Virus record (IMG/VR): IMGVR_UViG_3300044998_001320
Length of the DNA stretch: 64,000 bases
DNA from: an uncultured virus (IMG/VR IMGVR_UViG_3300044998_001320)
Taxonomy: Duplodnaviria; Heunggongvirae; Uroviricota; Caudoviricetes
Strand: one strand, 5' to 3'
Position 1 is the first letter of the stretch, and every line of letters begins with the position of its first letter. This document shows positions 5,948 through 57,267 of this stretch, one piece after another. A program made the translations under genes and the position numbers. Below the pieces are notes generated by a model. That model made no database searches. It had not been told where the DNA came from and saw only the letters and a program-made list of their open reading frames with translations.

Positions 5948-6529
5948 CGAACATTTACTCGACAATCGGTGAAACCCTTACGGCGCGGGCGGTTGCTGCA
6001 CCAGAGCGAGACTAAATGTTCGCAATCTCGCATTTACTTCACGAGCGCAACGGCGACCGCTTGAAACCCGGGCTGGAGGTGGAACCGAGCAAATGGCAGA
6101 AGTAAATGTTCATCTCGCATTTACTTTATAGGTAACGCCTGAAACTCTTGCGGAACAAGGGTTTCACGACTAAATGTTCATCTCGCATTTAGTCCGAGTA
6201 AATGTCATTTTCAACATTTAGTCGGCGTCTTTTTGGCGGCTTGTCCTTGTTTGTATTTATTTATTACGGGCCAAAAACGCGCGCGTGTGCGTGCATGCGC
6301 GCGAATATCACAACCAGAGCATGCTGTCAAGTGGTTGACGAGAAAAACTGCCGATCAAATCTCAACAACGGATCGACATGAGATGGGGTTTGGTAGTTAA
6401 TGGTGCTCGCGCGTTTTGCGGCTGATTCCAGGGGCGTGAAGGCGGCTTGCTGGCAAGTCAGGTATGTTGGGATGTTTAGCCCTAAAACAGGCGGCAAATT
6501 GGGGTGGTTTTTTGGGGGTGGCGATTAAG
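5948..6529. repeat. 582-bp non-coding direct repeat, copy 1
   Basis: Identical to 56686-57267 except T6404/C57142 and T6465/G57203 (compared by eye). Confidence 0.95.
6300..6330 (-). promoter_or_regulatory. Possible sigma70-type promoter inside the repeat, facing the palindrome array (also in copy 2 at 57038-57068)
   Basis: Perfect TTGACA at 6330-6325; only a weak -10 (TGTGATATTC). Confidence 0.35.
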
Positions 6530-6605
6530 TTGGCGATCAAGGTGGGTCGACGTAGCGGGCAAAATGATCGCCATGTGCTTTTTATGACAATGGGCGGTGC
6601 GCCAC

Positions 6606-7076
6606 TCAGGCTAATCCAAAAAAAGGCTGTCCGTTCAAGGTTAGGTCGCTCACGAACGCCAACATGCCATTGTTGTATCGCGCTCCAGCGTATTCGTAGT
6701 ACCCAAAAGTGAGCAAATCTTCTGTGGCATAGCGAGTGGGGACAAACCGGATGTATGCCCGCAGTTGTCCTGTGCCGTGATCCACTTTGGTTTCTACGTA
6801 GATTGACTCAATACCTCTTACCCAGCGTTTAATTTCCTGTCGCGCAGCATAGGCCCAGTATTGAGGGGCCACGTTATTGAGGTTCTCGAACAGATCAGGA
6901 GCTAGCCCCTTGTCGGGGTGGATATAGTCCTCCCCTTTGCGGGTTAGTAGCACAGTCAAAATCCCAGAGGAGATTTGGCGTGTGCCGCTGACGATTTGAA
7001 GCTGCCCTGTGCGATCGTCGTGGGCAGGCCATAGCGTCCAGCTAGAGCCAAGGTGAGCATAGGGGTCAGTGAACAT
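6606..7076 (-). CDS. Baseplate gp25/gpW-like protein
   Basis: ILTVLLTRKGEDYIHPDKG...IKRWVRGI matches the gp25 pattern LxTxxGERxxxPxFG; next to the tube gene. Confidence 0.8.
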   Translation of the reverse strand: MFTDPYAHLGSSWTLWPAHDDRTGQLQIVSGTRQISSGILTVLLTRKGEDYIHPDKGLAPDLFENLNNVAPQYWAYAARQEIKRWVRGIESIYVETKVDHGTGQLRAYIRFVPTRYATEDLLTFGYYEYAGARYNNGMLAFVSDLTLNGQPFFGLA

Positions 7077-7178
7077 GGTGCGGATTTGATAGCAGAAAGC
7101 GGCCAATCTTGTTAGACCGGCCGCCAATGTGAGGATGAAGATTAGCGGGTTGCCGTAATTCTCATGAGCTAATCCTCT

Positions 7179-7694
7179 TTACAATCCATCAATTCCCTTG
7201 TACATCGGCTTGATGTTGTCGTAAGAGATCGTCATTTTCATGAGCTGATCCTCTTCAGAATCCATCTCACCACCCGGCAAATCGAAGGATGTTGGCCACA
7301 TACCATAGACAGTGAACTCTTCGTTCTTCCTAGCACTGCCTGCGGCGGTTTGACCTCCACCCATAAATAGACGGTGGTAAATGATTCGCCCGTTGCGTTT
7401 GTATTCTGGTTTAACCCCGTCCCTTGACAAATCAAAGGCTTGATAAGCCCAGACAATCAAGGTATCCAAAGAGGACTGATGTGCAAGTTGAAACTCGACA
7501 TCGAATGTTCCTGGCTTTGAGACACCGGTGGGAACCTGAGTTCCATCCTTCAGCGTGATGATGCCGTTTTCCTGTGTGATATCGCCGATCGAGGTGGTGA
7601 TAATCGCTGAGGTACCAAAACCATCAATGATTAGCTCAACCTGAGACTTTCGGAAGACGTTACCTTCAAGAACGCCTTTAACTTGGATTGACAT
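7179..7694 (-). CDS. Tail tube protein
   Basis: 171 aa directly after sheath; YKRNGRI...FTVYGMWPTSFDLPGGEMDSEEDQLMKMTISYD, T4 gp19-like. Confidence 0.85.
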   Translation of the reverse strand: MSIQVKGVLEGNVFRKSQVELIIDGFGTSAIITTSIGDITQENGIITLKDGTQVPTGVSKPGTFDVEFQLAHQSSLDTLIVWAYQAFDLSRDGVKPEYKRNGRIIYHRLFMGGGQTAAGSARKNEEFTVYGMWPTSFDLPGGEMDSEEDQLMKMTISYDNIKPMYKGIDGL

Positions 7695-7709
7695 GATTTG
7701 AATCTCCTA

Positions 7710-10700
7710 CTAGTTGCGTCCCATAACTGAGCCAAAATCTGCAGACAGCACATCAGGCCCCAGGTTGATTGACAGTTGCTCCAGCACGCCTGCAGGAACC
7801 CACCGGACATCGATATCGAGCTTGCCTTGGATAATCCGCACGATCGCCTGCACCGCAGCCTGGTCGTTGACCACGTTCTGGGTGGGAGCCGACGAGTCCA
7901 TGAAAACGGCTTGCTGGAATGTGAGGTTATTGTTAATTGCCCCCTTGCGGTATTCATTTGCAAAGAATGCGTCCAGTTTCATCAGGATGACTTGCTGGAG
8001 CCTGGGGCTATTAGTCCGGAACAGCACCTCAAACAGCGATCGCGCCTCCAGGAAGATCCGAATGTAGTTCGATTGCGTGCGACGGATATGCAGGAAATCC
8101 CACAGTTGATTGATCGACGGCGCTCGAACACCCCAAATGACCGCGTTACCCTGGAGCATCTTGATCGTCTGAAGCCCTGCAACGTTGATCACCGCTTCGT
8201 CCTCGGGGTAAGCCTTGAAGGGCAGCGACAAAACTCCCGGCAAGATCTCGTTGACACCGGCAGCCGGGTCGTGGTAGCCCTGCACGACACTGGCTTTATA
8301 GGACTCCTTGCCCATCACCAGCCCCGAGAGCGTCACCAGTCGCTTGCCCGCCCCAAACGGGTTGGCAACGTAGCAGTAACTGGGGAATGCCGCTGACACG
8401 AAGTCTGATCGCCCCAGCTCTTCGTTGATGAAATTCTCGGCCATGGGAGCGCTGTTGTATGACAGCGGCACTTCCACTCGATACTCGAAAGCCCGCGCCG
8501 CTGCATAGTCCGCGCCGGCCTTCTGTACCGAGACGTCCGAAATTCCAGGGCAGGCGATCCGCACTAGTCCCAGGTTTTGTCCCCAGACAGCTCGTTCAAT
8601 GAAGTTGCCGCCAACCTCATTCCCGTCCGCCTCTAAAAACTGGATCCAGTGGTACGGAATCGTGTTAGCCAAGTCGCCGTCGTAGCCTCGGCGAAGCTGT
8701 TCGGTGTACGAGGCGATGAAATGATTCCCCACCTGGCTGTACAGCGACAGATCTGCACCAGGGTTTAGGATGATCAGCCCTGCGCGCGCTCCTTTGGTTA
8801 GGGCTGGCAGGTTCACAGCAAACGCCTTCTCTAGGTAGAGAAGCGTGTCTGACTGGATGAGCCGCACCTTGCGGGCCGTCTGGGATCTGGGGTCGTACAG
8901 ATAATCACCCTTGGTCAGCTCGGACGTAAACAGTGTGCCCACGCCATTGACCGTCGTGCCACTGCTGCTGATTGTGCCAGTCAGGTCAGCTTGGGCAACG
9001 GTGTCAAACGCGCTAAAGTGTTGACGCGGCAGGGAATAGGGATTCGGGTAGAATCGACCTCCACGGCCAGTTCCTCGCTTGAGTGCGTTGTAGTCAAGCT
9101 GTCCATAGACCCAAGCCTTATTGGCTTCGATCGCAACAATCCGTCCAGAGCCATTGGCAGGGCGCACGTCCATGCCAGGGCTGGTAGTGTAATCCGATTC
9201 CCACAGAGATCGTGCACGGATCCACTGAGGATAGTTCCCGCCATCGGTGCGATAACCGATGTTTTGCGCCTCCACAATCTCATCCACAAAGACCGGGCTG
9301 GTGGGGTCGAGGCTGGCATCGTCTATCTGCAAAACCTTGGAGCCATTAAAGAACACCTCCAAGCTAAAGTTCTCGGCGGGGTTCCGGAGTCCTTGCCCCA
9401 CTTTGACCTCTAGTCCTGTCTTGTTTTCAGAAGCTAAAGTGACAGAAGCAAATTGGTTTTGCTTCGTGATTGAGGCATTGGTGAAGCTGTCAGCAAAGGG
9501 GCGTTCAACCTTCAGGCTGGTGGCTGATGTGATCGATACGATCTTGACACTGCCGCTGCGCCGATTGGGGTCAACGATCCACTGCCCAACCTGGCACTCC
9601 GTCAGAAAGTTGGTACCTGTGCCGGACACCGTCGTGCTATCCGTCGTCAATTGGGATCCAGCCGTCAGCTCGGTGCTGAACCCGGACACCAGGGTTAGCT
9701 TGGTATTGCTGGTGATTGCCGCGATTTTGCGGCCTTGGCGATCGCCCGTAGGAGAAGAATAGTAAACCGTATCACCTACAGACAGATCGGTGGTAAAGTT
9801 CGTGCCTGTACCGGTGACCTCCAGGTTGTCGGTGCTGACCGTTGTACCTGAAGGAGCGTCCTGGGAAAAGGCTTCGGCGATCGTGGCAGTCGTGTTACTG
9901 GTAATTGACTCAATCCGTCGGGCCTCGCCATTCCAGTAGAGATTCTGACCGACCACCAGATCGTTCACGAAATTCGTGCCAGCGCCCGCCACGACGTTGC
10001 CGACAATCGTCACCGTTCCCGTTAGAGTCCGCTGGAGCGGGAAAGCAACCGTGCCGGTGATTGTGGTGTAGCGGTTGTAGCTGGCCGTACCAGTCAGAAT
10101 CGTTGGGCCCGAAATCCCATCGGTCAGCAGATTGTATTGGGCGGCCACCGTGAAAATCACCTCCCCAGTGGTGGGGTTGGCTGCGGTGTTGCCGACGATT
10201 CGATAGAGCCTGCCGGGTGCGCTTGTGAACTGAGCGTCGGCGCCATCAAACTCGTTAGACTCCACTCCGGGCGCAAATAGGGTAAATGTCCGAGTGGTGG
10301 CGACGATTACGGGGGTGCGGGGGATTTCATTGCCAGCGCCACCCCAGCGCCCACCATTCGCCGCCGTGATTTCCAAGGCATCACCACCCAGCCGGTTTTT
10401 GAGGATCAGCTTGGCAGGGCGACTCTTGCGCTCTAGGGGTAACCGGGCGACCCACAAGGTACCCCGCCCAGCGGAGGCACGGAAATAGCCGTCGATCGCA
10501 TCGGGCATTTGATGAGCGCCGTCATCAAACAAATGCCATCGTTCGTCATTAGGGTCGCCAAACAGGTTGTTGTACTCCCGCTTGCTGGAGACGGGGACTG
10601 CCACACCTTCAGGCCCCCGCTTTAAGACACCTAGGAAAAAGGCCGCGCCATAGTTTGCGTCAGCAAGGGGGCTGACGCCAGGGACTTCGCGTACCTTAAT

Positions 10701-10757
10701 CCCAGGCGCTCCTGGGGGTGGGCCATATTCGCGAATTGCGCCGTTGATTGAAGTCAT
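7710..10757 (-). CDS. Contractile tail sheath protein with repeated inserted domains
   Basis: PGIKVRE, AAFFLGVLKRGP N-terminal motifs; VIWGVRA, FLHIRR, VRWVPAGVLEQL C-terminal motifs; four GxGTNF-type repeats. Confidence 0.92.
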   Translation of the reverse strand: MTSINGAIREYGPPPGAPGIKVREVPGVSPLADANYGAAFFLGVLKRGPEGVAVPVSSKREYNNLFGDPNDERWHLFDDGAHQMPDAIDGYFRASAGRGTLWVARLPLERKSRPAKLILKNRLGGDALEITAANGGRWGGAGNEIPRTPVIVATTRTFTLFAPGVESNEFDGADAQFTSAPGRLYRIVGNTAANPTTGEVIFTVAAQYNLLTDGISGPTILTGTASYNRYTTITGTVAFPLQRTLTGTVTIVGNVVAGAGTNFVNDLVVGQNLYWNGEARRIESITSNTTATIAEAFSQDAPSGTTVSTDNLEVTGTGTNFTTDLSVGDTVYYSSPTGDRQGRKIAAITSNTKLTLVSGFSTELTAGSQLTTDSTTVSGTGTNFLTECQVGQWIVDPNRRSGSVKIVSITSATSLKVERPFADSFTNASITKQNQFASVTLASENKTGLEVKVGQGLRNPAENFSLEVFFNGSKVLQIDDASLDPTSPVFVDEIVEAQNIGYRTDGGNYPQWIRARSLWESDYTTSPGMDVRPANGSGRIVAIEANKAWVYGQLDYNALKRGTGRGGRFYPNPYSLPRQHFSAFDTVAQADLTGTISSSGTTVNGVGTLFTSELTKGDYLYDPRSQTARKVRLIQSDTLLYLEKAFAVNLPALTKGARAGLIILNPGADLSLYSQVGNHFIASYTEQLRRGYDGDLANTIPYHWIQFLEADGNEVGGNFIERAVWGQNLGLVRIACPGISDVSVQKAGADYAAARAFEYRVEVPLSYNSAPMAENFINEELGRSDFVSAAFPSYCYVANPFGAGKRLVTLSGLVMGKESYKASVVQGYHDPAAGVNEILPGVLSLPFKAYPEDEAVINVAGLQTIKMLQGNAVIWGVRAPSINQLWDFLHIRRTQSNYIRIFLEARSLFEVLFRTNSPRLQQVILMKLDAFFANEYRKGAINNNLTFQQAVFMDSSAPTQNVVNDQAAVQAIVRIIQGKLDIDVRWVPAGVLEQLSINLGPDVLSADFGSVMGRN

Positions 10758-11311: not shown

Positions 11312-11349
11312 TCACCATGATTTGCAAATCAGTTTACAAATCATGGTGA
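11312..11349. promoter_or_regulatory. 13-bp-arm inverted repeat at the end of thyX (terminator or operator)
   Basis: TCACCATGATTTG-N12-CAAATCATGGTGA. Confidence 0.5.
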
Positions 11350-12075
11350 CAGTCGCGCCTTACCCCACCGATTGGCTTCGTACCAATCTGCCAAGGACGG
11401 CATCCAGTCGGCAAAGCAATCGAAGGCCCGCTGACAAAGATCCTGAATCTCTAGTTGCGCGTCGGCCTTAGCCCGCAAATCGAGGATGTGCATCAGCGAT
11501 CGGGCATTGCAACTGAGCACAAAATGTTGACGCACATCGAAGGGAATCACCCCCCGCGCCTGCTCTTCCGACACCCCCTCACGAAGGCGCTGAGCATAGC
11601 GCTCTGCCCCCGCTTTGCAGTGAGCCAAGTCCTCCAATCGCTGCCCTGGAGAGTAGTCATATTTTTTGCCCTGGCGATCGCGGTATTGACCCGGCGGGCG
11701 CAAATAGAAAACCTCCTCAGGTTCTCGCTCCCCCTCGGCCACCTGGAGGATCCGTTGCCCCGTGTAGCGCCCGGACTGAACTGCGAACGAGACCCCTACC
11801 CGATGAGTGCGCAATTGTTGCATTGTCGAATGGGGGTAGCCGATGATATTTAGGGAGATTTGTGGGTGTTCAAGAATTCCGTAATGCCCGCGATTTCCTA
11901 ACAGCAAATGCTTGACAATTAGCCATCCCGCATTCTGTTCATTAGGCGTTTTTCTTAAATCGTCAACGACGGCATTCTCTGCATAGCACTGGTGCATTGC
12001 AAGCCAGCAAAGCTGTTGAGGGTTTGGCGTTCGGCGTAGCACCTCGACCCGAAAATATGGGTCACAAATCTTCAT
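11341..12075 (-). CDS. thyX: FAD-dependent thymidylate synthase
   Basis: GHYGILEH, QQLRTHRVGVSFAVQSGRY, EEQARG, NARSLMHILDLR, AQLEI. Confidence 0.95.
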   Translation of the reverse strand: MKICDPYFRVEVLRRTPNPQQLCWLAMHQCYAENAVVDDLRKTPNEQNAGWLIVKHLLLGNRGHYGILEHPQISLNIIGYPHSTMQQLRTHRVGVSFAVQSGRYTGQRILQVAEGEREPEEVFYLRPPGQYRDRQGKKYDYSPGQRLEDLAHCKAGAERYAQRLREGVSEEQARGVIPFDVRQHFVLSCNARSLMHILDLRAKADAQLEIQDLCQRAFDCFADWMPSLADWYEANRWGKARLSP

Positions 12076-12379
12076 CTTGCTCACCGATTCCATACTTCCT
12101 GAAAAATCCTCGTTGATAAGCAGCGCTGTCTGCGATTTCCTCTAGGAGGTACTCAATCCAGTCGATTGAAGTTTCAACGGTAAGCGGTTGTCCATAGACT
12201 GCCAACCCCTTGGCTTGCTGGCGGCGGATAATAGAGATCGCCTTCCAGCGGGCCAACTCAGCCCCGTAAATGTGGTAGCAGAACATTAGCAACACATCCA
12301 GCAAATCGGGCAGTGCGCTATCAGGAATTGGGCGCTCCGCCGCGTCTTTGATTAGTTCATCGTGAAAAGATTCACTCAC
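12062..12379 (-). CDS. Small phage protein, possible MazG-like all-alpha pyrophosphatase
   Basis: KGLAVYGQPL...WIEYLLEEIADSAAY (EExxD); lies in the nucleotide-metabolism cluster. Confidence 0.45.
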   Translation of the reverse strand: MSESFHDELIKDAAERPIPDSALPDLLDVLLMFCYHIYGAELARWKAISIIRRQQAKGLAVYGQPLTVETSIDWIEYLLEEIADSAAYQRGFFRKYGIGEQDEDL

Positions 12380-12836
12380 TTGAGCTGCCCTCCATAAGGA
12401 GCCGGGCTAAGGGGTGTGCCCGTAATTGGAACCCCTGTGCTCTATAGATTTCGGCTCGATTGTTTAGATCGCGTTTCATCGACTCGAGCGACTCGACGGT
12501 GATCGAGTAAAGCCGTTTTCGATCGCCCGTGCCTAGCCGTTTCGATTGGGTCTTGTAGCCTCTAGCTGCAAGGATTTGTCCGAAAATGGCTTGTCTTGCC
12601 ATCGATCGGTGGGGAGTAAATCCGAATACGATGCGGGCTTTCTGTGGGTTTTGCCGCACGCGATCGACAAACGTTTTTATGGGCGAGTCCTTATCTGCAT
12701 CCCAGCCCGGGTTCTCGATCGCCCATGCGAGCGCGTCCCAAAAGCCAAGGGATTCAGCCCCCTTTAGCCTTAGCTGTCTGGCAGCGAGATCTTGCTTGGA
12801 ACCGACCTGAGCGTAACCGACTAATTTCATATTCAA
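12372..12836 (-). CDS. Hypothetical protein, possibly DNA-binding
   Basis: In-operon ORF; basic C-terminal GYKTQSKRLGTGDRKRLYSI. Confidence 0.55.
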   Translation of the reverse strand: MNMKLVGYAQVGSKQDLAARQLRLKGAESLGFWDALAWAIENPGWDADKDSPIKTFVDRVRQNPQKARIVFGFTPHRSMARQAIFGQILAARGYKTQSKRLGTGDRKRLYSITVESLESMKRDLNNRAEIYRAQGFQLRAHPLARLLMEGSSSE

Positions 12837-12878
12837 ATCCTTGCACCTTGCACTCTGTTGACTCGATGAGGATCGTAG

Positions 12879-13406
12879 CTACCCCTTGCTAGCAGCCGCG
12901 CCCCGATCCTGATTGTACCGCCCTGTCGTTCGATAGCAAGACAAGGGACGATCAACCGCGTGAAAAACGATTTGCCCAATCTTCAGTCCGGGATAGAGGG
13001 GGAGTGCGTGGTATTGACTGAAGTTCTTTAGCTCCACCGTCAACGCGGATCCATTCCACCCTGGATCGCACCACCCCGCCAAGGCGTTTTCGTATCCTTC
13101 CCTGGCACGGCTCGACTTAAGTAAAAACTGCCCTGTAATTGAAGGGGGAAAATGGAAGATCTCGATCGTGTGGCCTAACACCAAAGCCCCCGGTGGTAGC
13201 CACCAGGGGTTGTCTTTAGAGAAATCTTCAAGGCTGATAAGATTCCAGCGATCAGAGGAATTGTACGAGCTACCGTCAGGATTTTCCACCAAAAGATCGA
13301 CCCCCAATCGAACGTCTAGTGACGCGGGATTGACCAGCTCTGGCAGTCCATTTTCCACGACTCCATCTAACAGTAACCCGCGAATCTGATAGTCAACTAA
13401 TGGCAT
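12879..13406 (-). CDS. dcd: dCTP deaminase
   Basis: VNPASLDVRLG, KSSRAREG, AGWCDPGWNG, LTVEL, KIGQIVF. Confidence 0.92.
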   Translation of the reverse strand: MPLVDYQIRGLLLDGVVENGLPELVNPASLDVRLGVDLLVENPDGSSYNSSDRWNLISLEDFSKDNPWWLPPGALVLGHTIEIFHFPPSITGQFLLKSSRAREGYENALAGWCDPGWNGSALTVELKNFSQYHALPLYPGLKIGQIVFHAVDRPLSCYRTTGRYNQDRGAAASKG

Positions 13407-21453: not shown

Positions 21454-21456
21454 TCA

Positions 21457-23821: not shown

Positions 23822-23827
23822 ACTTGA

Positions 23828-42910: not shown

Positions 42911-42925
42911 AGTAATACTCCTGGA

Positions 42926-47851: not shown

Positions 47852-48228
47852 GCCAAATCAAACCAGACAAAGTTGGCATCGTCGCGTAGAGCCACGGCAC
47901 AAACTTGGCTAACACCGTAGTTGGTGTGGTTACTGGGAATTCGGTCAAAGGGGTTCTCAGGAATGGGGGGCGGGGGCGGGTCGTCAGGATCCAAAGGCTC
48001 GCGGGGGGTGGGGGGTGTCCACAGGTCTATCGCGCCAGCACCCGATGCAATCAAGGTACGATCACGCCACAGGCTCTCACCATAGATCGGCTCTGCGCTG
48101 TTAGCCACGTCAATCCGCCACGACACCAACGTCCAACGCTCAAACTGAGCATAGCCTCGAATGGTGTAGCGATCACCTTCGTTGAGAATCAGCCCTACTG
48201 GCAACTGAAAGAAGACGGGAGCCAGCAT
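47848..48228 (-). CDS. Hypothetical protein
   Basis: TGATG-coupled to the upstream gene. Confidence 0.5.
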   Translation of the reverse strand: MLAPVFFQLPVGLILNEGDRYTIRGYAQFERWTLVSWRIDVANSAEPIYGESLWRDRTLIASGAGAIDLWTPPTPREPLDPDDPPPPPIPENPFDRIPSNHTNYGVSQVCAVALRDDANFVWFDLA

Positions 48229-49028
48229 CACCTCAGCACCCGATAGACACGGCATGGATAGTTGCGATCATAGCGGGCGTCATACTCGCTATAGGACGCG
48301 ACCCATACAAATCGAGACCTGCTGCTGCTGTTACTAACCACCTTGTCTGGCCCCAAGACGATGCCGACGTGAGCGCGCTGGCCCTTGCCCATGATCACGA
48401 TGTCTCCGGGCTGCCCTGCCGTGCGAGGCTCGATCTTTTGTCCACGTCCACCTGCCAGCTCCTCCTCAAGGCTATCAACCAGGTTAGGGTTCGTCCCGAT
48501 CGGCTTTAGTCCGGCTCGAGCCATTACCTTGTTCACGGCCCAGGCGCAAGCAACCCTACCGCCACCAGGCCCGGCAGCGGTAGACATTTTCTCAGCATAG
48601 GCAGCGCTGGCGGCTTGAAAGATCTTAGTGTTGATCTCCCCAGCGGGACTAGCCGGGCCGCCGGCCCCGCTACCCGCTGCCAAGGTGATTCCCTCGAGAG
48701 GGCGATCAGCGTTCCCCAAAAACACCTGGGGTGGGGGGGCGTTTGGATCCGGCTTGTAGCCATAGATATGGGCAATGATGCGATCAGTAATCTCGAACTC
48801 AATTTCTTCGCACGTGTATTCGCCGTCTAGCTCACTAGTGAAAGGCTTCGCCCCTGAGCCAGCAATCACTGCCAGCTCACCCGAACTCCCCCCACTACCC
48901 CCAAGAGACAACGATCCAAGCGAGCCAACACTTGCAGCTCCCAAGACCCCGGCAGTGAAGGACAGAGATCCGGTTGTTACGATTGTCCCGTTTTGGCTGG
49001 CAGCTCGGGAGATCGAAGGAATTGCCAT
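48228..49028 (-). CDS. NlpC/P60- or CHAP-like hydrolase preceded by a hub C-terminal fragment
   Basis: ACAWAV...PGDIVI...HVGIV; LDGEYTCEEIEFEI. Confidence 0.72.
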   Translation of the reverse strand: MAIPSISRAASQNGTIVTTGSLSFTAGVLGAASVGSLGSLSLGGSGGSSGELAVIAGSGAKPFTSELDGEYTCEEIEFEITDRIIAHIYGYKPDPNAPPPQVFLGNADRPLEGITLAAGSGAGGPASPAGEINTKIFQAASAAYAEKMSTAAGPGGGRVACAWAVNKVMARAGLKPIGTNPNLVDSLEEELAGGRGQKIEPRTAGQPGDIVIMGKGQRAHVGIVLGPDKVVSNSSSRSRFVWVASYSEYDARYDRNYPCRVYRVLR

Positions 49029-49030
49029 AG

Positions 49031-49501
49031 CTATCGCATCCTACTCGAGGCTGATCGCATCCGGGAAATCTCACAAGACTTCAACCTCCCGCCCTCAAAC
49101 CCCAGAAGCATTCGCAAGGAACTCTTGGGGGTAAGATGAGACGCCAGGGGAAGCGTGTTCAACTCCTGACGCACGACGGATAGGGCATGATCCAGTCGAG
49201 ACTGCTCGTCGTCGATTGTCTGACTTGAACGCTGACGAGGGCAATCCCCGCGATTGATATCTTCGCCCCAGCGGTAGTGAAATCTTCTGGTCTCAGAACG
49301 CTGCTGGATGCGAAATTCCGTGAAGGTCAGAAAAACCTCGATCTCAACCTCCGCCCCTGGTACTTGCGATTCTCGCAGTGACCACAAAAGGCTATTTTTG
49401 AGGACACAAATAAGCTGAATCTCAGCCCCCTCCAAGGGATGAGGAGACGGCTCATCAGGCTTGGGAATGAGTCGATAAATACCAGAGGGGAGGTTGGACA
49501 C
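49031..49501 (-). CDS. Hypothetical protein
   Basis: In-operon ORF. Confidence 0.5.
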   Translation of the reverse strand: MSNLPSGIYRLIPKPDEPSPHPLEGAEIQLICVLKNSLLWSLRESQVPGAEVEIEVFLTFTEFRIQQRSETRRFHYRWGEDINRGDCPRQRSSQTIDDEQSRLDHALSVVRQELNTLPLASHLTPKSSLRMLLGFEGGRLKSCEISRMRSASSRMR

Positions 49502-49513
49502 AACAATTAAAGG

Positions 49514-49745
49514 CTACTTGCGGGACTGTTTCTTCTGTTCTCTTGCTTGTCGCTCATAAAGATCGTTTAGCTTTTTGGTCATGTAAAGCACCGTAGAAAT
49601 AGGCAAATTCATGACCTCTTCAACAGAACTGAACGGGGCTTGCTCGCCTACCGAAAGATAAAAAGCCAAATCGATCCAATATTGACGATCTCGTTCTAAT
49701 TCTTTAGAGTTCGTCGCTATCTCGGAAAGCAGGGTTGTACCAAAA
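49514..49745 (-). CDS. Tail assembly chaperone post-frameshift (gpT-like) segment
   Basis: YWIDLAFYL...SVEEVMNLPIS...EREQKK-like tail; overlaps the upstream chaperone and has no convincing start of its own. Confidence 0.6.
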
Positions 49746-50765
49746 GTTGCCAACATCAATCCAAGGAACTGTGGCAGTCCACGAAAACTCTTCCCGACAA
49801 GGACACACCATTGGGATTTCCACCTTGGGGCCAATTTTGTCTAGTTTCTTAACTGCCCTTTCAAGGTAATTAAGATTAGCCGGGCTCTCAGTAAGGGCAT
49901 GCCAAAAACGCAGATTCCAGTGGCGTCCATTGCCCATAGATGACGACTCAGGAACATCAGCGATGTAGCTCAGAATCGACATAGCTATAGGGGACATCCG
50001 GTGCTCCGGATCTTTCTTGGCAGTTGAAACCTGAAGATCTAGAACCTTTTTTACCCCCCGCAAAGTAGGAGTGGGATGAAAGTGAAGATGAGTGATCCGC
50101 TCCTCCTGAGGGGTTCCCGCATACAGAGAAAAAGGAGTCGGCAACGTCACCTCGATTCGATGGGAAGCGGGCAAGTTTCCAACAAACCCAACATCCATGC
50201 CCGAGAAATCTAAGACGACATCAAAGTTTTTGGTGCAGCGTTGAGCGTTGCATTGCACCTGCATCACAAAATCAAAGGGCTTCAACTCGGTGATTTCGTG
50301 CTGCAACTCTCGCATCTTTTTCAGACGAATAGCAAAACACAAAAACACCAAATCTTTAATATAAAAAGCGTCGAATAGCCGCGAGAAACTATTACTGAAA
50401 AACTGCCCCGAAATCAACGACAAGGGACGGTCACCTACAGCATCAACTGCTTTGCTAAGGCAGCCGGGCAAGGCCGACAAAGCTCCATAGTTGCTGTTGC
50501 GATCTTTTAAGGCATCGGCGATCAAAGCATCGATGGCGGTCTTAGTAGCAGCGCTGATTGTTCCTAGCCCAAAGGAGCGAGCTGTTTCGTCGGGCAACTT
50601 CACCCCAACCGGGAGCAGATTCCCCGCTTCACATAAGGGGACAGTCTCAATATTCAGATCGGCGATTTTGATTGCTTCCAAAGGGGGTTCACTGGGGACA
50701 GGAAGCACTTGGGCGGAAGCCGCTTCGGAGGTAGGCACGAAACCAACGCCAGCGGAGTAGGTCAT
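49704..50765 (-). CDS. Tail assembly chaperone (myophage gp26/gpE-like)
   Basis: LLPVG, KDLVFL, CNAQRC and CPC motifs, VTLP; overlapping downstream ORF. Confidence 0.62.
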   Translation of the reverse strand: MTYSAGVGFVPTSEAASAQVLPVPSEPPLEAIKIADLNIETVPLCEAGNLLPVGVKLPDETARSFGLGTISAATKTAIDALIADALKDRNSNYGALSALPGCLSKAVDAVGDRPLSLISGQFFSNSFSRLFDAFYIKDLVFLCFAIRLKKMRELQHEITELKPFDFVMQVQCNAQRCTKNFDVVLDFSGMDVGFVGNLPASHRIEVTLPTPFSLYAGTPQEERITHLHFHPTPTLRGVKKVLDLQVSTAKKDPEHRMSPIAMSILSYIADVPESSSMGNGRHWNLRFWHALTESPANLNYLERAVKKLDKIGPKVEIPMVCPCREEFSWTATVPWIDVGNFWYNPAFRDSDEL

Positions 50766-50857
50766 AAGGACAAATCAATTGTGGGCAATGATCACTATCT
50801 TAGGCGAAAAAAACACACAACCCAATGCATAGATTCGATAATTATGCAAGACCCATG

Positions 50858-51256
50858 CTAGTTTAGGCGATCAGGTTCAATTGCCGTACCGGTCGTCTTT
50901 GTCAGCCGCCACTGATGGATCCAACCAACACCAAAGGACAGTTCCAGGATGATCGCGATCAAGTTGCCATCCTCGGAAAGCACGCTATCGGTTGGCACTC
51001 CCGACCGCCGTGCCTCAGGGTATAGGTAGCCTCGGAGCAATCGACAAGAATAGCTGAGATCGGCGGGAATAGCTAGCAATGGATCAGCTTCGCGACGCAC
51101 AGGCAGACATAGGGAGATCGGCTCTTGACTTTCCCGCACCGCCGACAAGTAGGCGGCAAGCTCTTCCCCCCGCTGGGCAGGCCAGGTGCGGGTTAACTCA
51201 ATCCGCCAGTAGTAGCCACGAGTCAGCACTCGGTGAGCGGAAGTCAGCCTTTCCAT
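50858..51256 (-). CDS. Putative head closure protein
   Basis: About 130 aa after the connector; LLRGYL...DSVL...WRL. Confidence 0.5.
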   Translation of the reverse strand: MERLTSAHRVLTRGYYWRIELTRTWPAQRGEELAAYLSAVRESQEPISLCLPVRREADPLLAIPADLSYSCRLLRGYLYPEARRSGVPTDSVLSEDGNLIAIILELSFGVGWIHQWRLTKTTGTAIEPDRLN

Positions 51257-51257
51257 C

Positions 51258-52145
51258 CTAGCAAACCACTGAAGACACGCGCCAGTTGGTGAGTGGGTAG
51301 AGGAGTCGGTCAAGCAGAGTGGGTCGAGGCTTGGTGTTCAAGGCGACTCCAGTAGGTACAGCGAAGGACTTGCGAAGCCCACCCGGCAATTCAACGGACT
51401 GCACGGGATAGTCTGACATGGAGAACCGCGACCAGTCGACTGAAGACAAGGTCGGGTCTAGGGATATGGACTCGATTAACAGGTCAATCAGGCAGTCGAC
51501 AATCGCACCAGGCAAAGGGTCAATACCTGCCGTATAGGTCACTTCGACAGACGCCTGTGCAAATCCTACACCGACAATACGCCCGCCCTGCCAAAATCCA
51601 GAGATTGAAGAGACGGGCAAGGGACGGGAAATCGCCCCTGGACTCCGTATTGCAAGAGACTCAATTCCTAACACCGGGGAGATGGGGAGACGAATCCGCC
51701 CAAACCGATCAGATTGGATGACCTCTTGGTAGGTCGTTACTGCCAACCGCCGTCCTAGCCACTGGTGCACCAGATCGCAGGCACGGTCAAGCGTTGTTGC
51801 TATGATGGCGGTCGACGGCGCAGTCTCTTCGGAGTAGAGACCTAGGGCGATCAATCGGGTACGGGCGATCACCGGGTCAAGGTAAGGGTTGCGGGCAGGG
51901 AAATACCGCCCATGAAAATCCAACAACCTGGACTCCCATTGGATCAGGGTCGTTGGATTGATCGGCACGGGCGCGGCAACGATTGACTCCAGCAGCGATC
52001 GCAGATCAGCCAATAACAGGTAGCGATCGCCCTCCCCTTCTAACCAGCGCCGCGCCGTTGATTGCAACACTGCACTGGACAAGGCTGGATCGGAGATCAA
52101 TGCCCTGACCTGATCAAGGCACTCCGTCACCGCAGATGCTGTCAC
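51258..52145 (-). CDS. Head-tail connector/adaptor
   Basis: ACDLVHQWLGRRL...IRLPISPVLGIES...VEVTYTAG...LPGAI. Confidence 0.8.
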   Translation of the reverse strand: MTASAVTECLDQVRALISDPALSSAVLQSTARRWLEGEGDRYLLLADLRSLLESIVAAPVPINPTTLIQWESRLLDFHGRYFPARNPYLDPVIARTRLIALGLYSEETAPSTAIIATTLDRACDLVHQWLGRRLAVTTYQEVIQSDRFGRIRLPISPVLGIESLAIRSPGAISRPLPVSSISGFWQGGRIVGVGFAQASVEVTYTAGIDPLPGAIVDCLIDLLIESISLDPTLSSVDWSRFSMSDYPVQSVELPGGLRKSFAVPTGVALNTKPRPTLLDRLLYPLTNWRVSSVVC

Positions 52146-52510
52146 GAGTCACTCGCCTTGCGCCGCCGGGGGCGCGGTTGCCGATCTGAGTCGCTCTCTG
52201 ACTCTGAGCTAGTCCCTGGATCCGAGTCAAGGGGTGGCACAGGAATCGGCGCCACACCTGGCGCGATCAACAGCTCTGGATCCTTGTCCTCTTCGGACTG
52301 GGTCGGGGTCGAGTCCGAGGTGATCGAGACAGAGGGCGGCGAGATCGGTTCATAGTCCTGGGCATACCCCTCGGATACTAGCCGATCTCGTTCAGTCGGG
52401 GTGACCAACAAGTAGTCGCTACGACATAATGGGCGCATCCCGGGGAGTCGCAACACGGGTTCATCCCACAAATCCAGAGGGGAGACCCTAACCAAATCAA
52501 GACTCCCCAT
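52142..52510 (-). CDS. Small head-associated hypothetical protein
   Basis: Position after capsid; low-complexity tail. Confidence 0.55.
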   Translation of the reverse strand: MGSLDLVRVSPLDLWDEPVLRLPGMRPLCRSDYLLVTPTERDRLVSEGYAQDYEPISPPSVSITSDSTPTQSEEDKDPELLIAPGVAPIPVPPLDSDPGTSSESESDSDRQPRPRRRKASDS

Positions 52511-52895
52511 CGTTGACGCCCTCCACAAATAATCGCAGGGACTGTAGGTGGCGACTAGTGAGCAGACCGCCAAGCCCATCCGCCGTTAAGGGGCGGGACT
52601 TGACAATCTTGGACGCAAGGGATTCAGAAATGCCTTTAACCGCTGCAATCTCCGACTGGTCGGACTTATTCAGAAAATCCAGAATTAAGTCCAACTGCTC
52701 AGGGCTGGCTTCGGCGGGCGATGCCTTCGGCGGCGAATCACCGTAGGGCACAGCATAGCCCGCCGCGATTGCCCAGTGAGCAATCGGATCCGGCAGATCC
52801 GCCAGCAAACTAGCCGGCCGCCGGATCAATCCTAAGACAGGATCCGTTTGGATTGGGGGTTGGGTACGCCATTTGTCCGTTTGACAGATCAGCAC
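52497..52895 (-). CDS. Helix-hairpin-helix domain protein
   Basis: LNKSDQSEIAAVKGISESLASKIVKSRP. Confidence 0.7.
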   Translation of the reverse strand: MLICQTDKWRTQPPIQTDPVLGLIRRPASLLADLPDPIAHWAIAAGYAVPYGDSPPKASPAEASPEQLDLILDFLNKSDQSEIAAVKGISESLASKIVKSRPLTADGLGGLLTSRHLQSLRLFVEGVNDGES

Positions 52896-52905
52896 AGGCT
52901 ACCTC

Positions 52906-54030
52906 CTAGAGGGCACTGAAACTCGTACCCGAAGGCACGGTAACGTTGAGCCGGTAGATGCCGGCTCCACCATGTTTGGCGAACAGCGTGCCATAGATGA
53001 GAGCCATCCGCGATTCGATCAGGATTCGGTCGCCTTGATTGACAGTCGTATCAAACAATTGTACCTCCAACCCGATCGCCGGATCCTCTGATCCGCCCAT
53101 TGGCATCACGCCATACCACTCAATTAGATTCATGTCAACAATGTAGTAGCGAACAGTGTCCGTGCCTGACCCGCCGCCTACGTCACGGATATAAGGTGAC
53201 TGGACGATCGGCACCGACCCGTTCATGATCGCGGGGATACTAACACCCGGAACCACGGAGCTAACATTTTGGAAAATGATCTGATTTTGCCATTCAGTTT
53301 GCAACAGGTAAGCTCCCGTTGCGCTGGTCAGGATATGGGTGGGCTTGATGCGAATATTTTCGTTGGCATCCTGGATTTGCAAGACCGCCCGATTTAGAGC
53401 GTTGGAAATCGGCGTACCCGAACCCAGGGTGGTAACGGTGACGGCGGGCAGGGTGTTGCCACTCGGCATCTGGGCCAGCAACCCATTAAACTCCAAGGGG
53501 TTGGCAGTGGCATTACCGCTGATCAGCAGCTTCTCTAGCACTCGATAGGTGTTTGTCACGACATCAACCGTGTCCTGAGCAAACTGATCGCCAAAGGGAT
53601 ATCCCTGCTGGCGAGCCAGAGATTCCTGTAAGTGACTACTCCTGACCTGCCCTCCTAAGGCCTTGATCTCCTGTCCCGGATCGCTCAAGTTGAGAGCTGT
53701 GTTAGTAGGAGCCGACGTAGAGACTGTTGACAAGTCATGCCCGTTTATCGCGCCGGCCGCAGGGAATGAATCCCGACGAGCCTGCTTGACGATTGGACTA
53801 TTGGCGGGCTTCTTGGTCAAGAGAGGCCACAGCACGGTTTCCCGGCGGCGAATATCGCCAATCTCGTCCAAAAACAAGAGATTGACGGTGCGGCCAGCCT
53901 GCCAATTGTAGGCAGAGGCGCGCACGTTTTCGAGGTAACTTTCGCCGACACTCACGGGCAAGACACCACCCGAGCCGGATGCGGCAACAGGGGTAGTGCT
54001 GGATTCAGGGGTGGGTAAATAAATCGCCAT
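52906..54030 (-). CDS. Major capsid protein
   Basis: 374 aa after the protease; EKLLISGN...EFNGL, KPTHIL, VPIVQSPYI. Confidence 0.88.
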   Translation of the reverse strand: MAIYLPTPESSTTPVAASGSGGVLPVSVGESYLENVRASAYNWQAGRTVNLLFLDEIGDIRRRETVLWPLLTKKPANSPIVKQARRDSFPAAGAINGHDLSTVSTSAPTNTALNLSDPGQEIKALGGQVRSSHLQESLARQQGYPFGDQFAQDTVDVVTNTYRVLEKLLISGNATANPLEFNGLLAQMPSGNTLPAVTVTTLGSGTPISNALNRAVLQIQDANENIRIKPTHILTSATGAYLLQTEWQNQIIFQNVSSVVPGVSIPAIMNGSVPIVQSPYIRDVGGGSGTDTVRYYIVDMNLIEWYGVMPMGGSEDPAIGLEVQLFDTTVNQGDRILIESRMALIYGTLFAKHGGAGIYRLNVTVPSGTSFSAL

Positions 54031-54051
54031 GGGTCTTGATTGAAGTGGGGT

Positions 54052-55890
54052 TTACTGGTACTGGCCAATCGCGGCGGCTGTCTGAAGATCGGCAATTTGC
54101 TGCTTAAGAGAAAACCGAGCAGCGAGGTTGTGGGGCGGCGTGCGCTCAAGTTGGGCAGTCAACACCGCTATGCGATCATCACTACTAGCAGCGACGGGGG
54201 TGGGAGTACCAGGCACTAGAGGGGACGTTGTGAGACGGCGAGGAGTGGCAGCAACCGGGCGGCCTGCGTTCAGCACAGACCGGATACGTTCGTCAAGGGT
54301 GGGACTGATCGCCTCGATCACTTTGCCGGCCATCGCCTCGATCGCCTCAGCTTCAGCTTTGGCTGCTTCGGCGGCGAGGCGCTCCGCTTCGGACTGGGCT
54401 TCGGCCTCGCGTTGCTTGGCTTCGACGGCCACAAGGCGATCATTCAAAGACTCGATCGGGGGCAACAACTTAGCAGCGATCGCCTCAACAATCGTGGACA
54501 GATCCGAGGCTTCAATCGGAGAGGACATAGGATCAGGTTTAGAAATAGTAGGGATAGTAGGGGTGTCCGATGTTTCCGGGGTTGCAGAGGCGACCAAAGG
54601 CACGTCCTCCGCAGCGGCCGCCACCGGCAGCGCCCGCCCGTTTTGATCAACCGCCGACAGTAGCCGGACGCGGGTTTTCTGGTAGGTGGCAGCGGATGCT
54701 CGAAGGATTGTGCCGCCCTTGAGTTTGAGGCGATCAACCACGGCTACGTCCCGTCCGCCTACCTTACCCCGATGCCAGGATACAGAGCCAATCATTGACA
54801 TACCCAGGTCACCCGCACGGGCGGCGGCACGGATCTCCGCAACCTTTTGGGGTAAGTGGTGTCCGTGCAGGAACCCACGAATCACCGCATCTTTCCCAAC
54901 CACAGCACCAGCGGTAATCGCGCCGACGATAGTGCCGCCATGGGACTCCAAAGACTCGTCGGCATCCAAAGGACAGCCTAAGACTCGTTTCATCGCAGCA
55001 GCAGCCACGTCGGAGGTGATCAGCATGGGCAGGCGTGGCCCCACCATTGGTGCGCATTCGGAAGGTTCGTCAACTCGAAATAGCACGCCCTCGATCGGCA
55101 CAGCATCATCGTCGTCGTCGACAGCTTCGAGATCGGCGGTGGTAGCGGCGGCCAGGGTTAAAGCCCAGACCGCTTCGTACTCCCCCGAGGACGCCTCCAC
55201 GGCGATCGCCTCAGACTCCATAGGATCCACCTCAATCTCGCTCTCGATAGCCAGCCCAGAGTTGTTGGTAGTTGGATGAGCGTCAAGGGACGAAAGAACC
55301 TTGCCTAGCTCATCAATCAGAAGACTCATCGCTTCCGCTGGCTCCGTCAAGTCGTGCAGCCTACGGAAGAAAAGGTCTAGGAAAAAACGAATCGCCGTAA
55401 CCAACCGGAATGAACGGACTTCACGGTCTACGCCCTCAATTAGTCCATCACAGGGACAGCCATAATCCGAGGCACGGTAATAGATATCCAGCCCCGACCA
55501 GGCACGATCTCTAGCGGAAGGCGGCGGCAAGTCAGCGATCGCCTCGCGCAAAGCGTTGAGAGTCGAGGCGATCGTATCCGCCGCGCTGTCATTGGGGTCG
55601 TTGGTTGCCAGGCGCTGATAGCACAAAGCAAGGGCGGTGTCAACTCGCGCCACCCACAACCGCAACTGGGTTTCAGCGGACAAGGAAAGCGCCGCAGCCT
55701 CGACTGGAGCGGGGTGATCAAAGGACGAGTAGTGAGACGATGCAGTCAAGGGCAAGTACCCAGACTCCATCAACACCTGGCGCAAAATTTGCTCCCCAGA
55801 AACCAGGGATTGGTGGGCCGTCTTGAGGCGATCAGCGTTGGCCCCTGAAATTGATCGCCCGGCTGCTTGCACGTCGTCAGTTGTTGTCAT
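54052..55890 (-). CDS. Prohead protease/scaffold protein
   Basis: SHGGTIVGAI...LGMS...GGTILRASAATY then a coiled-coil scaffold; upstream of capsid. Confidence 0.75.
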   Translation of the reverse strand: MTTTDDVQAAGRSISGANADRLKTAHQSLVSGEQILRQVLMESGYLPLTASSHYSSFDHPAPVEAAALSLSAETQLRLWVARVDTALALCYQRLATNDPNDSAADTIASTLNALREAIADLPPPSARDRAWSGLDIYYRASDYGCPCDGLIEGVDREVRSFRLVTAIRFFLDLFFRRLHDLTEPAEAMSLLIDELGKVLSSLDAHPTTNNSGLAIESEIEVDPMESEAIAVEASSGEYEAVWALTLAAATTADLEAVDDDDDAVPIEGVLFRVDEPSECAPMVGPRLPMLITSDVAAAAMKRVLGCPLDADESLESHGGTIVGAITAGAVVGKDAVIRGFLHGHHLPQKVAEIRAAARAGDLGMSMIGSVSWHRGKVGGRDVAVVDRLKLKGGTILRASAATYQKTRVRLLSAVDQNGRALPVAAAAEDVPLVASATPETSDTPTIPTISKPDPMSSPIEASDLSTIVEAIAAKLLPPIESLNDRLVAVEAKQREAEAQSEAERLAAEAAKAEAEAIEAMAGKVIEAISPTLDERIRSVLNAGRPVAATPRRLTTSPLVPGTPTPVAASSDDRIAVLTAQLERTPPHNLAARFSLKQQIADLQTAAAIGQYQ

Positions 55891-55908
55891 CCAAAATACC
55901 TGCAAATG

Positions 55909-55945
55909 CAAAACGGGGACGCACTCATAGCGTGCCCCCGTTTTG
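55909..55945 (-). terminator. Hairpin with T-tract downstream of the HU gene
   Basis: CAAAACGGGG...CCCCGTTTTG. Confidence 0.55.
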
Positions 55946-56020
55946 GGCTTTAAAAATTTTTGTTGGACTAAGCCGAATGTCTATAGCATAACTGCTACAG
56001 AAAATCAACGCAAGCTTCGT

Positions 56021-56335
56021 TCACCAATCCTCGTTAAAAAGCGGAGTCCCTGGGGGGAGCCGCAGGTATTGCCGCAGTTGACTCCCTGGACGAAAACGAA
56101 CAGTCCTGCTCTCCGGGATTTGAATTTTATCACCTGTGCGAAAATTCCGTCCCACGCGCGACGGAGAATAATGCAAATAAAATCGCCCAAAGCCTTGGAT
56201 TGATACCGGAATACCCCGAACCAGGCTATGGATCAAATAACACTGGAGGCAGTCCAAGACACGGGCAATATCTGACTGGGGAATATCTGTGTCGTAGTAA
56301 ATTGCCCTGATCAACGCCTGGCGATTCATAGGCAA
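56021..56335 (-). CDS. HU/IHF-family DNA-binding protein
   Basis: MNRQALI, VSIQGFGRF, RVGRNFRTGDKIQIP, VRFRPGSQLR. Confidence 0.9.
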   Translation of the reverse strand: MPMNRQALIRAIYYDTDIPQSDIARVLDCLQCYLIHSLVRGIPVSIQGFGRFYLHYSPSRVGRNFRTGDKIQIPESRTVRFRPGSQLRQYLRLPPGTPLFNEDW

Positions 56336-56685
56336 TCAGCTTACCTTTTAGCAATAAAAAACTTATCACAATCTTAGCATGATTACACTAAAATCAACAA
56401 GTCTTGCAACACAAAAAACGAAGCGATTATTTGAAGCTAAATCCTGGAATCAGGTTGTAGCATTTGGCACTTGAATACGCAAGGAGGCTAACCAACGAGG
56501 GGTCGCCTTGGGTGACCAGATGAACAGACAGATGACACGCTTAATCGCCCCAGCAGATCCATCAGTCCTGCCCACCCCCAGTCCCAACACACCGATTGAA
56601 TTGCACCGATGTTTATCAGCTCGCATTTACTTTTGCGAGTGATCCACCCTGCTCAAAGCAAGCCACAAGCAAAACCTAACGATAA

Positions 56686-57267
56686 CGAACATTTACTCGA
56701 CAATCGGTGAAACCCTTACGGCGCGGGCGGTTGCTGCACCAGAGCGAGACTAAATGTTCGCAATCTCGCATTTACTTCACGAGCGCAACGGCGACCGCTT
56801 GAAACCCGGGCTGGAGGTGGAACCGAGCAAATGGCAGAAGTAAATGTTCATCTCGCATTTACTTTATAGGTAACGCCTGAAACTCTTGCGGAACAAGGGT
56901 TTCACGACTAAATGTTCATCTCGCATTTAGTCCGAGTAAATGTCATTTTCAACATTTAGTCGGCGTCTTTTTGGCGGCTTGTCCTTGTTTGTATTTATTT
57001 ATTACGGGCCAAAAACGCGCGCGTGTGCGTGCATGCGCGCGAATATCACAACCAGAGCATGCTGTCAAGTGGTTGACGAGAAAAACTGCCGATCAAATCT
57101 CAACAACGGATCGACATGAGATGGGGTTTGGTAGTTAATGGCGCTCGCGCGTTTTGCGGCTGATTCCAGGGGCGTGAAGGCGGCTTGCTGGCAAGTCAGG
57201 TAGGTTGGGATGTTTAGCCCTAAAACAGGCGGCAAATTGGGGTGGTTTTTTGGGGGTGGCGATTAAG
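56686..57267. repeat. 582-bp non-coding direct repeat, copy 2
   Basis: 580/582 identical to 5948-6529, same orientation. Confidence 0.95.

Follow-up and report, generated by a model that had tools for sequence, protein, structure and literature searches.

What does a near-identical, non-coding repeat of several hundred base pairs do inside the genome of a tailed phage, and how did it come to stand there twice? Compact phage genomes seldom contain long near-identical repeats in their interior, since a crossover between the copies deletes the intervening DNA. The question is raised by a 64,000-nucleotide stretch of DNA from an uncultured virus of the Caudoviricetes (IMG/VR record IMGVR_UViG_3300044998_001320; the whole stretch is referred to below as the window), in which a 582-bp element occurs twice in direct orientation, as R1 at 5948-6529 and as R2 at 56686-57267, with starts 50,738 bp apart. 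The reading that we favour, at a probability of roughly 0.5, is that the element is a putative composite control cassette for two leftward units, that it was duplicated in a rearrangement and that its copies have been homogenised by gene conversion; the doubt attaching to this package mostly concerns function, not structure.

Two copies of one non-coding repeat

A repeat search, an alignment in MAFFT of both copies, each with 100-nt flanks, and a base-by-base comparison define the element, which is given without strand. R2 differs from R1 by exactly two substitutions, i.e. T at 6404 against C at 57142, and T at 6465 against G at 57203. The two copies are the sole repeat family of at least 40 nt in the window, and inverted repeats of at least 40 nt are absent from it. 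The left edge of identity is abrupt, whereas the right edge fades through an imperfect tandem of a 12-nt unit, which at the right boundary of R1 reads GGTGGCGATCAA x2.4 (6517-6545), and over the first 20 nt past that edge a partial likeness between the copies persists. In one metagenome run, X10, the contig that carries the flank of R1 lacks 12 nt at 6519, i.e. one tandem unit, which is slippage at the repeat junction.

Both copies are non-coding. Open reading frames (ORFs) within the repeat are short, those common to both copies being chance short frames, and an 82-aa ORF that leaves R1 (6464-6712) has its ATG abolished in R2. The window holds no tRNA or tmRNA that we could find and no Rfam family at gathering score; a sub-threshold match to NmsRb near R2 (E = 0.79) was rejected. 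There is no terminal inverted repeat and no target-site duplication, the flanks of the copies are unrelated, PHROG and Pfam scans of the 61 ORFs of the window gave no transposase match, and no ORF is conserved between the copies; a transposable element or miniature inverted-repeat transposable element was rejected on the same grounds, together with the lack of inverted repeats of 40 nt or more. An artefact, whether a concatemer or a duplication of the whole genome, was likewise rejected, since the repeat is limited to 582 bp, as was a CRISPR-like mini-array, the spacers being 65, 45 and 5 nt. On these points the sequence-only reading of the window, which had described an intergenic, non-coding direct repeat with two substitutions, 50,738 bp between copies and no target-site duplication, terminal inverted repeat or transposase, is upheld by the repeat search, the alignment and the contigs from public metagenomes considered below.

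The region 3500-9500 is contained in 12 public runs (hot-spring and microbial-mat metagenomes), four of which possibly represent the source sample; at least half of its sequence words are present in 11 of the 12. Logan contigs of four of the runs (X1, X5, X10 and X12) were aligned to 2500-10500, and the repeat was found in all four. It forms a separate contig in X1 (582 nt, with exactly the bounds of R1), X5 (526 nt) and X10 (559 nt), at about twice the depth of its flanks, where depth is a mean per contig and the contigs may lose minority variants. In X1 the repeat has a depth of 31.2 against 15.2-16.6 for four flank contigs that overlap its ends by 30 nt, namely one of 5,880 nt for the left flank (depth 15.5), one of 5,957 nt for the right flank (15.8), one of 43,997 nt that ends in the left flank of R2 (15.2) and one of 18,611 nt that starts at the right flank of R2 (16.6). 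The corresponding depths in X10, where the phage is 16-fold more abundant, are 557.1 for the repeat and 246.6, 264.4, 297.4 and 291.7 for the flanks, and those in X5 are 445.2 for the repeat and 221.7-242.2 and 250.0-256.4 for the flanks; in X12 the phage is present as fragments only, at a depth of at most 4. The loose ends at 5948 and 6529 lead to the flanks of R2 alone (X1 and X10 show both of them, X5 and X12 one each), which gives two entry and two exit flanks.

The DNA between the copies (6530-56685, 50.2 kb; part A) and the remainder (part B) are equally deep, with values for A and B of 15.2-15.8 and 15.5-16.6 in X1, 264-297 and 247-292 in X10, and 250-256 and 222-242 in X5. Taken together, the doubled depth of the repeat, the two entry and two exit flanks and the equal depth of A and B imply two copies per genome and an A:B ratio of 1:1; the repeat has exactly two contexts and occurs twice per genome equivalent. 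That the ratio holds over a 16-fold range of abundance speaks against independent replicons. No further copies were found, whether in the assembly graph with its two ways in and two ways out or, as a comparable repeat, in three distant relatives.

The copies evolve in concert. X5 and X10 represent a variant strain, with 0.4-0.7% differing letters in the flanks. The repeat differs from that of the window at 6051, 6091, 6092, 6284 and 6404 in X5, and at 6091, 6092, 6404 and two more places in X10; in each run these variants sit in one contig at full double depth, with repeat-to-flank ratios of 1.9 and 2.0. Since variants present in one copy only would split the node or lower its depth, these ratios indicate that the alleles are shared by both copies. 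The copies are thus identical within a population and differ between populations, which is concerted evolution via recombination. Because it is carried at double depth, the T/C difference at 6404 does not distinguish R1 from R2 in a fixed manner but is a polymorphism of the population.

Linear phage genomes of the T7 and N4 types bear direct terminal repeats, with which the element shares an exact direct repeat of several hundred base pairs at twice the depth of its surroundings (31.2 against ~15.7 in X1, 557 against ~275 in X10 and 445 against ~236 in X5), although doubled depth alone does not define such a repeat. In contrast with terminal repeats, the element is internal and has four different flanks: 5.9 kb, with the tape-measure, Gam-like and tube-initiator genes, lies to the left of R1, and at least 18.6 kb to the right of R2. 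As phage genes lie outside both copies, a direct terminal repeat was rejected. Direct repeats that bracket a segment releasable as a circle are also the mark of the attL/attR pair of a Campbell-type cointegrate, and a crossover between R1 and R2 would indeed release the bracketed segment; the sequence-only reading was correct in this geometry, i.e. a 50.7-kb circle and a remainder. However, no integrase was found, the two parts are incomplete and of one lineage, and 582 bp far exceeds the usual att cores. A prophage att pair was rejected for want of an integrase and since phage genes flank both sides.

Architecture and neighbourhood of the element

Because the flanking genes run leftward, the element is read here on the minus strand, with R1 coordinates. 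In that order it begins with a trailer of ~225 nt, featureless save for a weak promoter-like TTGACA-15 nt-TGtGATATT (6304-6330, minus strand), which was noticed by eye and falls outside the 16-18 spacer limit of the promoter scan. There follow a GC-alternating hairpin (6278-6303) and a TTTTT run (6273-6277), which together make a weak, by-eye terminator-like feature on the minus strand (6273-6303), and then an AT-rich tract (6236-6266, minus strand) with two overlapping ATAAATA on the minus strand; the GC content of 6236-6262 is 37%, against 55% for the window. A single other minus-strand ATAAATA occurs in the window, 15 nt ahead of the start codon of the first gene of the spike unit, which encodes 88 aa.

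The remainder of the element is a motif array of ~280 bp in which two motif families alternate. Dyad sites of the form TAAATG-N9-12-CATTTA lie on the plus strand at 6013-6036, 6103-6123, 6171-6191 and 6199-6220 in R1, and at 56751-56774, 56841-56861, 56909-56929 and 56937-56958 in R2; three of the four have a common direct core, ATCTCGCATTTA(C/G). All four matches to the palindrome in the window lie within the repeats (expected 0.07), and all seven matches to the direct core lie in or beside them (expected 1.0), the seventh being at 56618. A half-site, ACATTTAC, which belongs to an inverted-repeat pair, marks the left edge of the repeat at 5950-5957 (plus strand; 56688-56695 in R2). The degenerate motif that the sequence-only reading had placed beyond R2 is real: a degenerate extra site with the core AGCTCGCATTTAC lies at 56608-56631 on the plus strand, 143 nt left of the first full site of R2, and has no counterpart in the flank of R1. 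The earlier proposal that R2 is the ancestral copy draws on this extra iteron outside R2, which points weakly in that direction.

The second family, TGAAACYC, is found at 5970, 6062 and 6140 on the plus strand and at 6159-6166 on the minus strand of R1 (56708, 56800, 56878 and 56897 in R2). Against 4.84 expected, the window has 16 matches, half of them inside the two copies. The inverted pair of this motif at 6138-6168 is capable of forming a hairpin (-13.9 kcal/mol, z = -3.56). That the two families alternate suggests that a unit of 70-90 nt was triplicated in tandem long ago. When the entire repeat was folded as RNA, z was -1.5 for the minus strand and -3.3 for the plus strand; the latter value, which stems from G-U pairing and from the palindromes, was not counted in favour of a structured RNA. 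Another non-coding region with iteron-like repeats lies elsewhere in the window, at 63216-63282, where AGGAAACACCA occurs three times in tandem and overlaps a perfect 18-nt inverted repeat; it is a candidate for an alternative origin or operator.

Both copies are intergenic in a same-strand, stop-to-start position, R1 between 6606 and 5908 and R2 between 57476 and 56335, and both are at leftward operon boundaries. The gene downstream of R1 (4382-5908, minus strand, 508 aa) was assigned with moderate confidence to a gpU-like tube-initiator/baseplate protein, although each line of evidence for this identity is weak. The Pfam match, to Phage_P2_GpU, is weak (E = 0.085) and a sequence search of the PDB returned no matches; an AlphaFold model with a mean pLDDT of 58.6 gave baseplate-initiator chains of contractile systems as the best Foldseek matches, with chain 8kea_R of cyanophage A-1(L) at E = 3.4e-3. 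The longest ORF at this position starts at a TTG at 5965, within R1. All five relatives compared (63-82% identity) begin at a methionine aligned to residue 20, and from this shared start the gene is corrected to begin at the ATG at 5908, 39 nt beyond R1. With 450 aa, a recorded gene call for the tube initiator is even shorter; the proline-rich character of the N-terminus is conserved. Upstream of R1 is a gene for a 173-aa gp25-like baseplate protein (6606-7127, minus strand), a weak assignment (PHROG baseplate families, E about 1e-3; Pfam GPW_gp25, E = 0.24).

Downstream of R2, beyond a 350-nt spacer, is the gene for an HU/IHF-like DNA-binding protein (56021-56335, minus strand; Pfam Bac_DNA_binding, E = 1.1e-20; NCBIfam IHF/HU matches under cut-off), with its own downstream hairpin at 55909-55945, after which come a 619-aa gene and that of the capsid. 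The earlier description of both copies as lying upstream of leftward structural genes therefore holds for R1, which precedes the tube-initiator gene, but not for R2, where the gene 350 nt downstream is the non-structural HU/IHF-like one. Upstream of R2, at a distance of 208 nt, is the gene for a 1006-aa spike with a gpV-type OB domain (57476-60496, minus strand; Pfam Phage_base_V, E = 5.3e-5), homologues of which occur in two distant relatives, G002 and G003.

Gene order around the copies was compared with whole records of three distant IMG/VR relatives (G001-G003). In G003 a 77-aa ORF and then the tube-initiator homologue come after the spike gene on the same strand, without a non-coding gap, and in G002 four ORFs separate the spike and tube-initiator homologues, again on the same strand; G001 gave no spike match. 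Portal, 619-aa homologue and capsid come after the spike and tube-initiator genes in both G002 and G003. R1 and R2 thus lie at the two sides of what looks like a break in a conserved spike/tube-initiator neighbourhood, an observation which is suggestive only, since the relatives are very distant and many other rearrangements separate them from the window. With extended repeat regions as queries, tblastx and blastn found nothing in the three relatives. As a side observation, the block spike - tube initiator - portal - 619-aa protein - capsid is conserved within this sister group (L017-L024 of G002, L012-L016 of G003 and L007-L011 of G001).

Control cassette, origin or scar

On the favoured reading, the GC hairpin with its T-run would stop transcription arriving from the upstream unit and the AT-rich ATAAATA tract would act as a promoter, from which a 280-bp leader would follow whose four or five dyad sites (21-24 bp) and four TGAAACYC motifs would bind one or two sequence-specific proteins. 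The HU/IHF-like protein, a 105-aa protein with a weak helix-turn-helix match (61154-61471) and the 260-aa response regulator of the phage are candidates for the binding role. Two units might in this way come under common control, i.e. the tube-initiator gene at R1 and, at R2, the HU gene together with those of the head. The rearrangement by which the tube-initiator gene was parted from the spike gene is the probable source of the second copy, and homologous recombination between the copies would now mainly take the form of gene conversion, a crossover giving two defective circles.

Several results weigh against this reading. The promoter, terminator and binding roles are predictions from sequence. 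The promoter scan (spacer 16-18) found no sigma-70-type promoter in 5700-6800, and the GC hairpin (-14.7 kcal/mol, z = 0.17) folds no better than shuffled sequences and was left uncalled by the terminator scan. The array resembles origin iterons as much as it does operators: the spacing of the half-sites varies (9, 9, 10 and 12 nt) and three sites have the direct core. Apart from trivial ones, no motif or k-mer occurs both in the repeat and in two or more further intergenic regions. Given the 350 nt between R2 and the HU gene, in which promoter-like boxes belonging to that gene seemingly lie, R2 may drive nothing. None of the three distant relatives has a long near-identical dispersed repeat, their repeats being a 150-nt overlap of the ends of G002 and others with an identity of 67-91%, and none has a non-coding region upstream of the tube-initiator gene. 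Finally, as depth is a mean per contig, the statements on copy number and concerted evolution are an indirect measure.

Among described concepts, the PeSL (promoter-early stem-loop) cassette of T4-type phages comes closest. PeSLs are intergenic repeated terminator/promoter cassettes, recombination between which reshuffles genes and can release circles; there are ~50 per genome, each with a sigma-70 consensus promoter and a stem-loop, mainly in hyperplastic regions of non-essential genes (PMC2839356, PMC4122927). The element resembles PeSLs in its intergenic, same-strand, stop-to-start position and in the consequences of recombination. It differs in being present as two copies of 582 bp with 99.7% identity between essential structural genes, in having a dyad-site array and no called sigma-70 promoter, and in being ten times longer than a promoter and a hairpin require.

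Of the three readings that the sequence-only reading had offered, a duplicated regulatory cassette is the one that we favour, a pair of replication origins stands as a serious rival, and a bipartite genome is disfavoured by uniform depth. Were the copies two identical origins, the dyad repeats would be iterons bound by the initiator and the AT-rich tract would be an unwinding element, an arrangement that can be likened to the layout of the lambda ori. We regard this as unlikely, albeit deserving of serious attention, for there are four to six repeated sites with a common direct 13-nt core beside the 37% GC tract (the element at 6236-6262 adjoins the array) and a GC palindrome, and the phage has genes for proteins of the DnaB and DnaG types and for a weak DnaD/O-like candidate (18167-19429). 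Yet the sites are irregularly spaced, at 28.5, 68 and 88.5 bp from centre to centre, neither copy is near the replication genes (the closer is ~12 kb off), and there is the other iteron-like region at 63216-63282. Phage SPP1 offers a precedent, its two origins being similarly organised with direct repeats as well as an AT-rich DNA-unwinding element (PMC6316719, PMC3485210), and one of them lying in a non-coding segment that contains moron genes and splits the late genes (PMC6316719), much as R2 lies beside a moron-like HU gene among late genes. The likeness is in two dispersed regions with repeats and an AT-rich tract; the SPP1 copies, however, are similar in organisation and not near-identical over 582 bp, one is inside the initiator gene, and their activity has been demonstrated experimentally, whereas the cassette here is known from sequence alone.

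It is also conceivable, though less likely again, that the second copy is an idle scar, kept since its homologous loss would delete essential genes and reset by gene conversion. The position at the synteny break with respect to G002 and G003, the microhomology and 12-nt tandem at the right junction and the lack of a comparable repeat in all three relatives fit such an origin, as does the observation that the repeat is no more conserved than its surroundings (in X5, 5 of 526 nt differ, against 15 of ~3,460 and 14 of 3,674 in the flanks). This account covers the second copy alone, as at least one copy must perform the role of the motif array, and both copies are present in all four runs examined; it is compatible with a control cassette. 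An improbable alternative is that the element serves in partition, in the manner of a centromere, or in recognition for packaging, and is present as two sites to which a ParB-like protein or a small terminase would bind. An array of two motif families is typical of sites at which nucleoprotein complexes assemble, TGAAAC resembles half of the chromosomal parS palindrome, the phage encodes a ParB-like protein and a ParB-methyltransferase fusion (39018-41232), and the HU/IHF-like gene lies beside R2. Set against this, the window yielded neither a ParA nor a terminase gene, Pfam gave no match to the ParB-like protein at E <= 0.001, two packaging sites at a distance of 50.7 kb would serve no obvious purpose, and there is no sign of a plasmid-prophage life style.

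We consider very improbable a bipartite or cointegrate genome, or a mis-threaded assembly path, in which a 50.7-kb circle (one repeat plus 6530-56685) and a molecule of ~25.8 kb would share the repeat. Contigs built from 31-letter words cannot span 582 bp and leave the pairing of the flanks undecided, so that the two topologies are indistinguishable by short reads, a matter of some relevance to assembly practice; the alternative junction would restore the spike/tube-initiator neighbourhood of two of the three relatives, and identical 582-bp repeats are good substrates for crossover. However, depth inside and outside the repeats is uniform in each of the three informative runs, whose abundances span a 16-fold range, which in part refutes the segmentation proposed by the sequence-only reading, and in X10 depth tracks position and not part (~247 and 264 around R1, 297 and 292 around R2). 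Neither part is complete, as the tape-measure and spike genes are outside and the capsid, portal and replication genes inside; A and B are of the same composition, a 76,585-nt contig exists, and homologues of genes of both parts are on single contigs in the relatives. To our knowledge, no multipartite tailed phage has been described. Faintest among the possibilities is that a 76.6-kb cointegrate is in equilibrium with two sub-genomic circles of 50.7 and ~25.8 kb, which would make this a functionally bipartite tailed phage. The larger circle would then carry the capsid, portal, baseplate, fibre, lysis and replication genes and the smaller one the tape-measure, spike and tube-initiator genes, and the circles would form and re-fuse by homologous recombination at a 582-bp shared origin and control region.

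Whichever function it has, the repeat is present in natural populations of several studies, is homogenised and is located where the gene order differs from that of relatives. It may thus be a natural case both of phage recombination that reshuffles essential structural genes along with their control regions and of gene conversion that maintains dispersed repeats. A dense array of predicted binding sites is, moreover, brought to light in a lineage of uncultured hot-spring cyanophages that has no close relative among GenBank phages or in IMG/VR.

The phage and its lineage

The genes identified in the ORF scans are those of a contractile-tail phage, i.e. a tape measure (27-3518, plus strand), a Gam-like protein, a fibre (7710-10757) and baseplate-type proteins, together with the head genes for portal, head-tail adaptor and capsid, a DnaG-type primase, a DnaB-type helicase and an endolysin; no large terminase or DNA polymerase was found in the window in these scans. 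An identical capsid protein sits on a contig of 76,585 nt, and the Logan contigs, taken together, agree with this, as they extend from window position 98 to about 75,850; the window is 64 kb of a single genome of ~76.6 kb. The contigs of X1, X5 and X10 all stop at window positions 80-98, within the tape-measure ORF, which is open at the first base; a repeat, a stretch of high variability or an end of the genome close to where the source contig starts could account for this.

The two parts are alike in composition, the tetranucleotide correlation between A and B being 0.965, against 0.924-0.943 for controls in which equal-sized pieces of A were compared with the rest, and homologues of A and B genes are on single contigs in all three relatives. 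The window contains 40 HIP1 sites (GCGATCGC; e.g. at 5013, 36711 and 46197) against 1.7 expected, 34 of them in A and six in B, with none in the repeat or its spacers. As an excess of HIP1 is a cyanobacterial signature, the host is probably a mat cyanobacterium.

The phage is a novel, uncultured tailed phage from hot-spring microbial-mat metagenomes. GenBank phages gave no match to the repeat (blastn), to 40000-60000 (megablast) or to the capsid protein (tblastn), and in IMG/VR there were no matches to the exact iteron pattern or to single-protein queries with the spike, tube initiator and capsid. A capsid-family profile found the three distant IMG/VR relatives, with a capsid identity of 35-39%; they are of 81-149 kb and form a distant sister group, with a fibre identity of 47-49%. 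Species-representative genomes yielded no capsid relatives and no pattern matches. Three loci in JGI metagenomes that match the iteron pattern have no similarity to the window by blastn or tblastx and were hence set aside as chance. Closer relatives are known as proteins, with identities of 72% for the primase, 65-81% for the capsid and 62-81% for the tube initiator.

Some other genes of the window deserve mention. The ParB-like protein and the fusion of a ParB N-terminal domain with a DNA methyltransferase, encoded in that order at 39018-41232 on the plus strand, are conserved in G003. A two-component set at 19975-22625 (plus strand) comprises a PAS histidine kinase of 492 aa and receiver proteins of 137 and 260 aa, the C-terminal half of the latter matching no family. 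A thymidylate-synthase homologue and a dCTP deaminase (11341-13406, minus strand) co-occur with the HU/IHF-like gene (56021-56335, minus strand), a set which resembles that of SPO1, with its hydroxymethyl-uracil DNA and HU-like TF1; base modification of the phage DNA is speculation only. Adjoining the endolysin gene is that of a 699-aa GH9 glycoside hydrolase with a CelD_N domain (23396-25927, minus strand), which may degrade sheath or exopolysaccharide.

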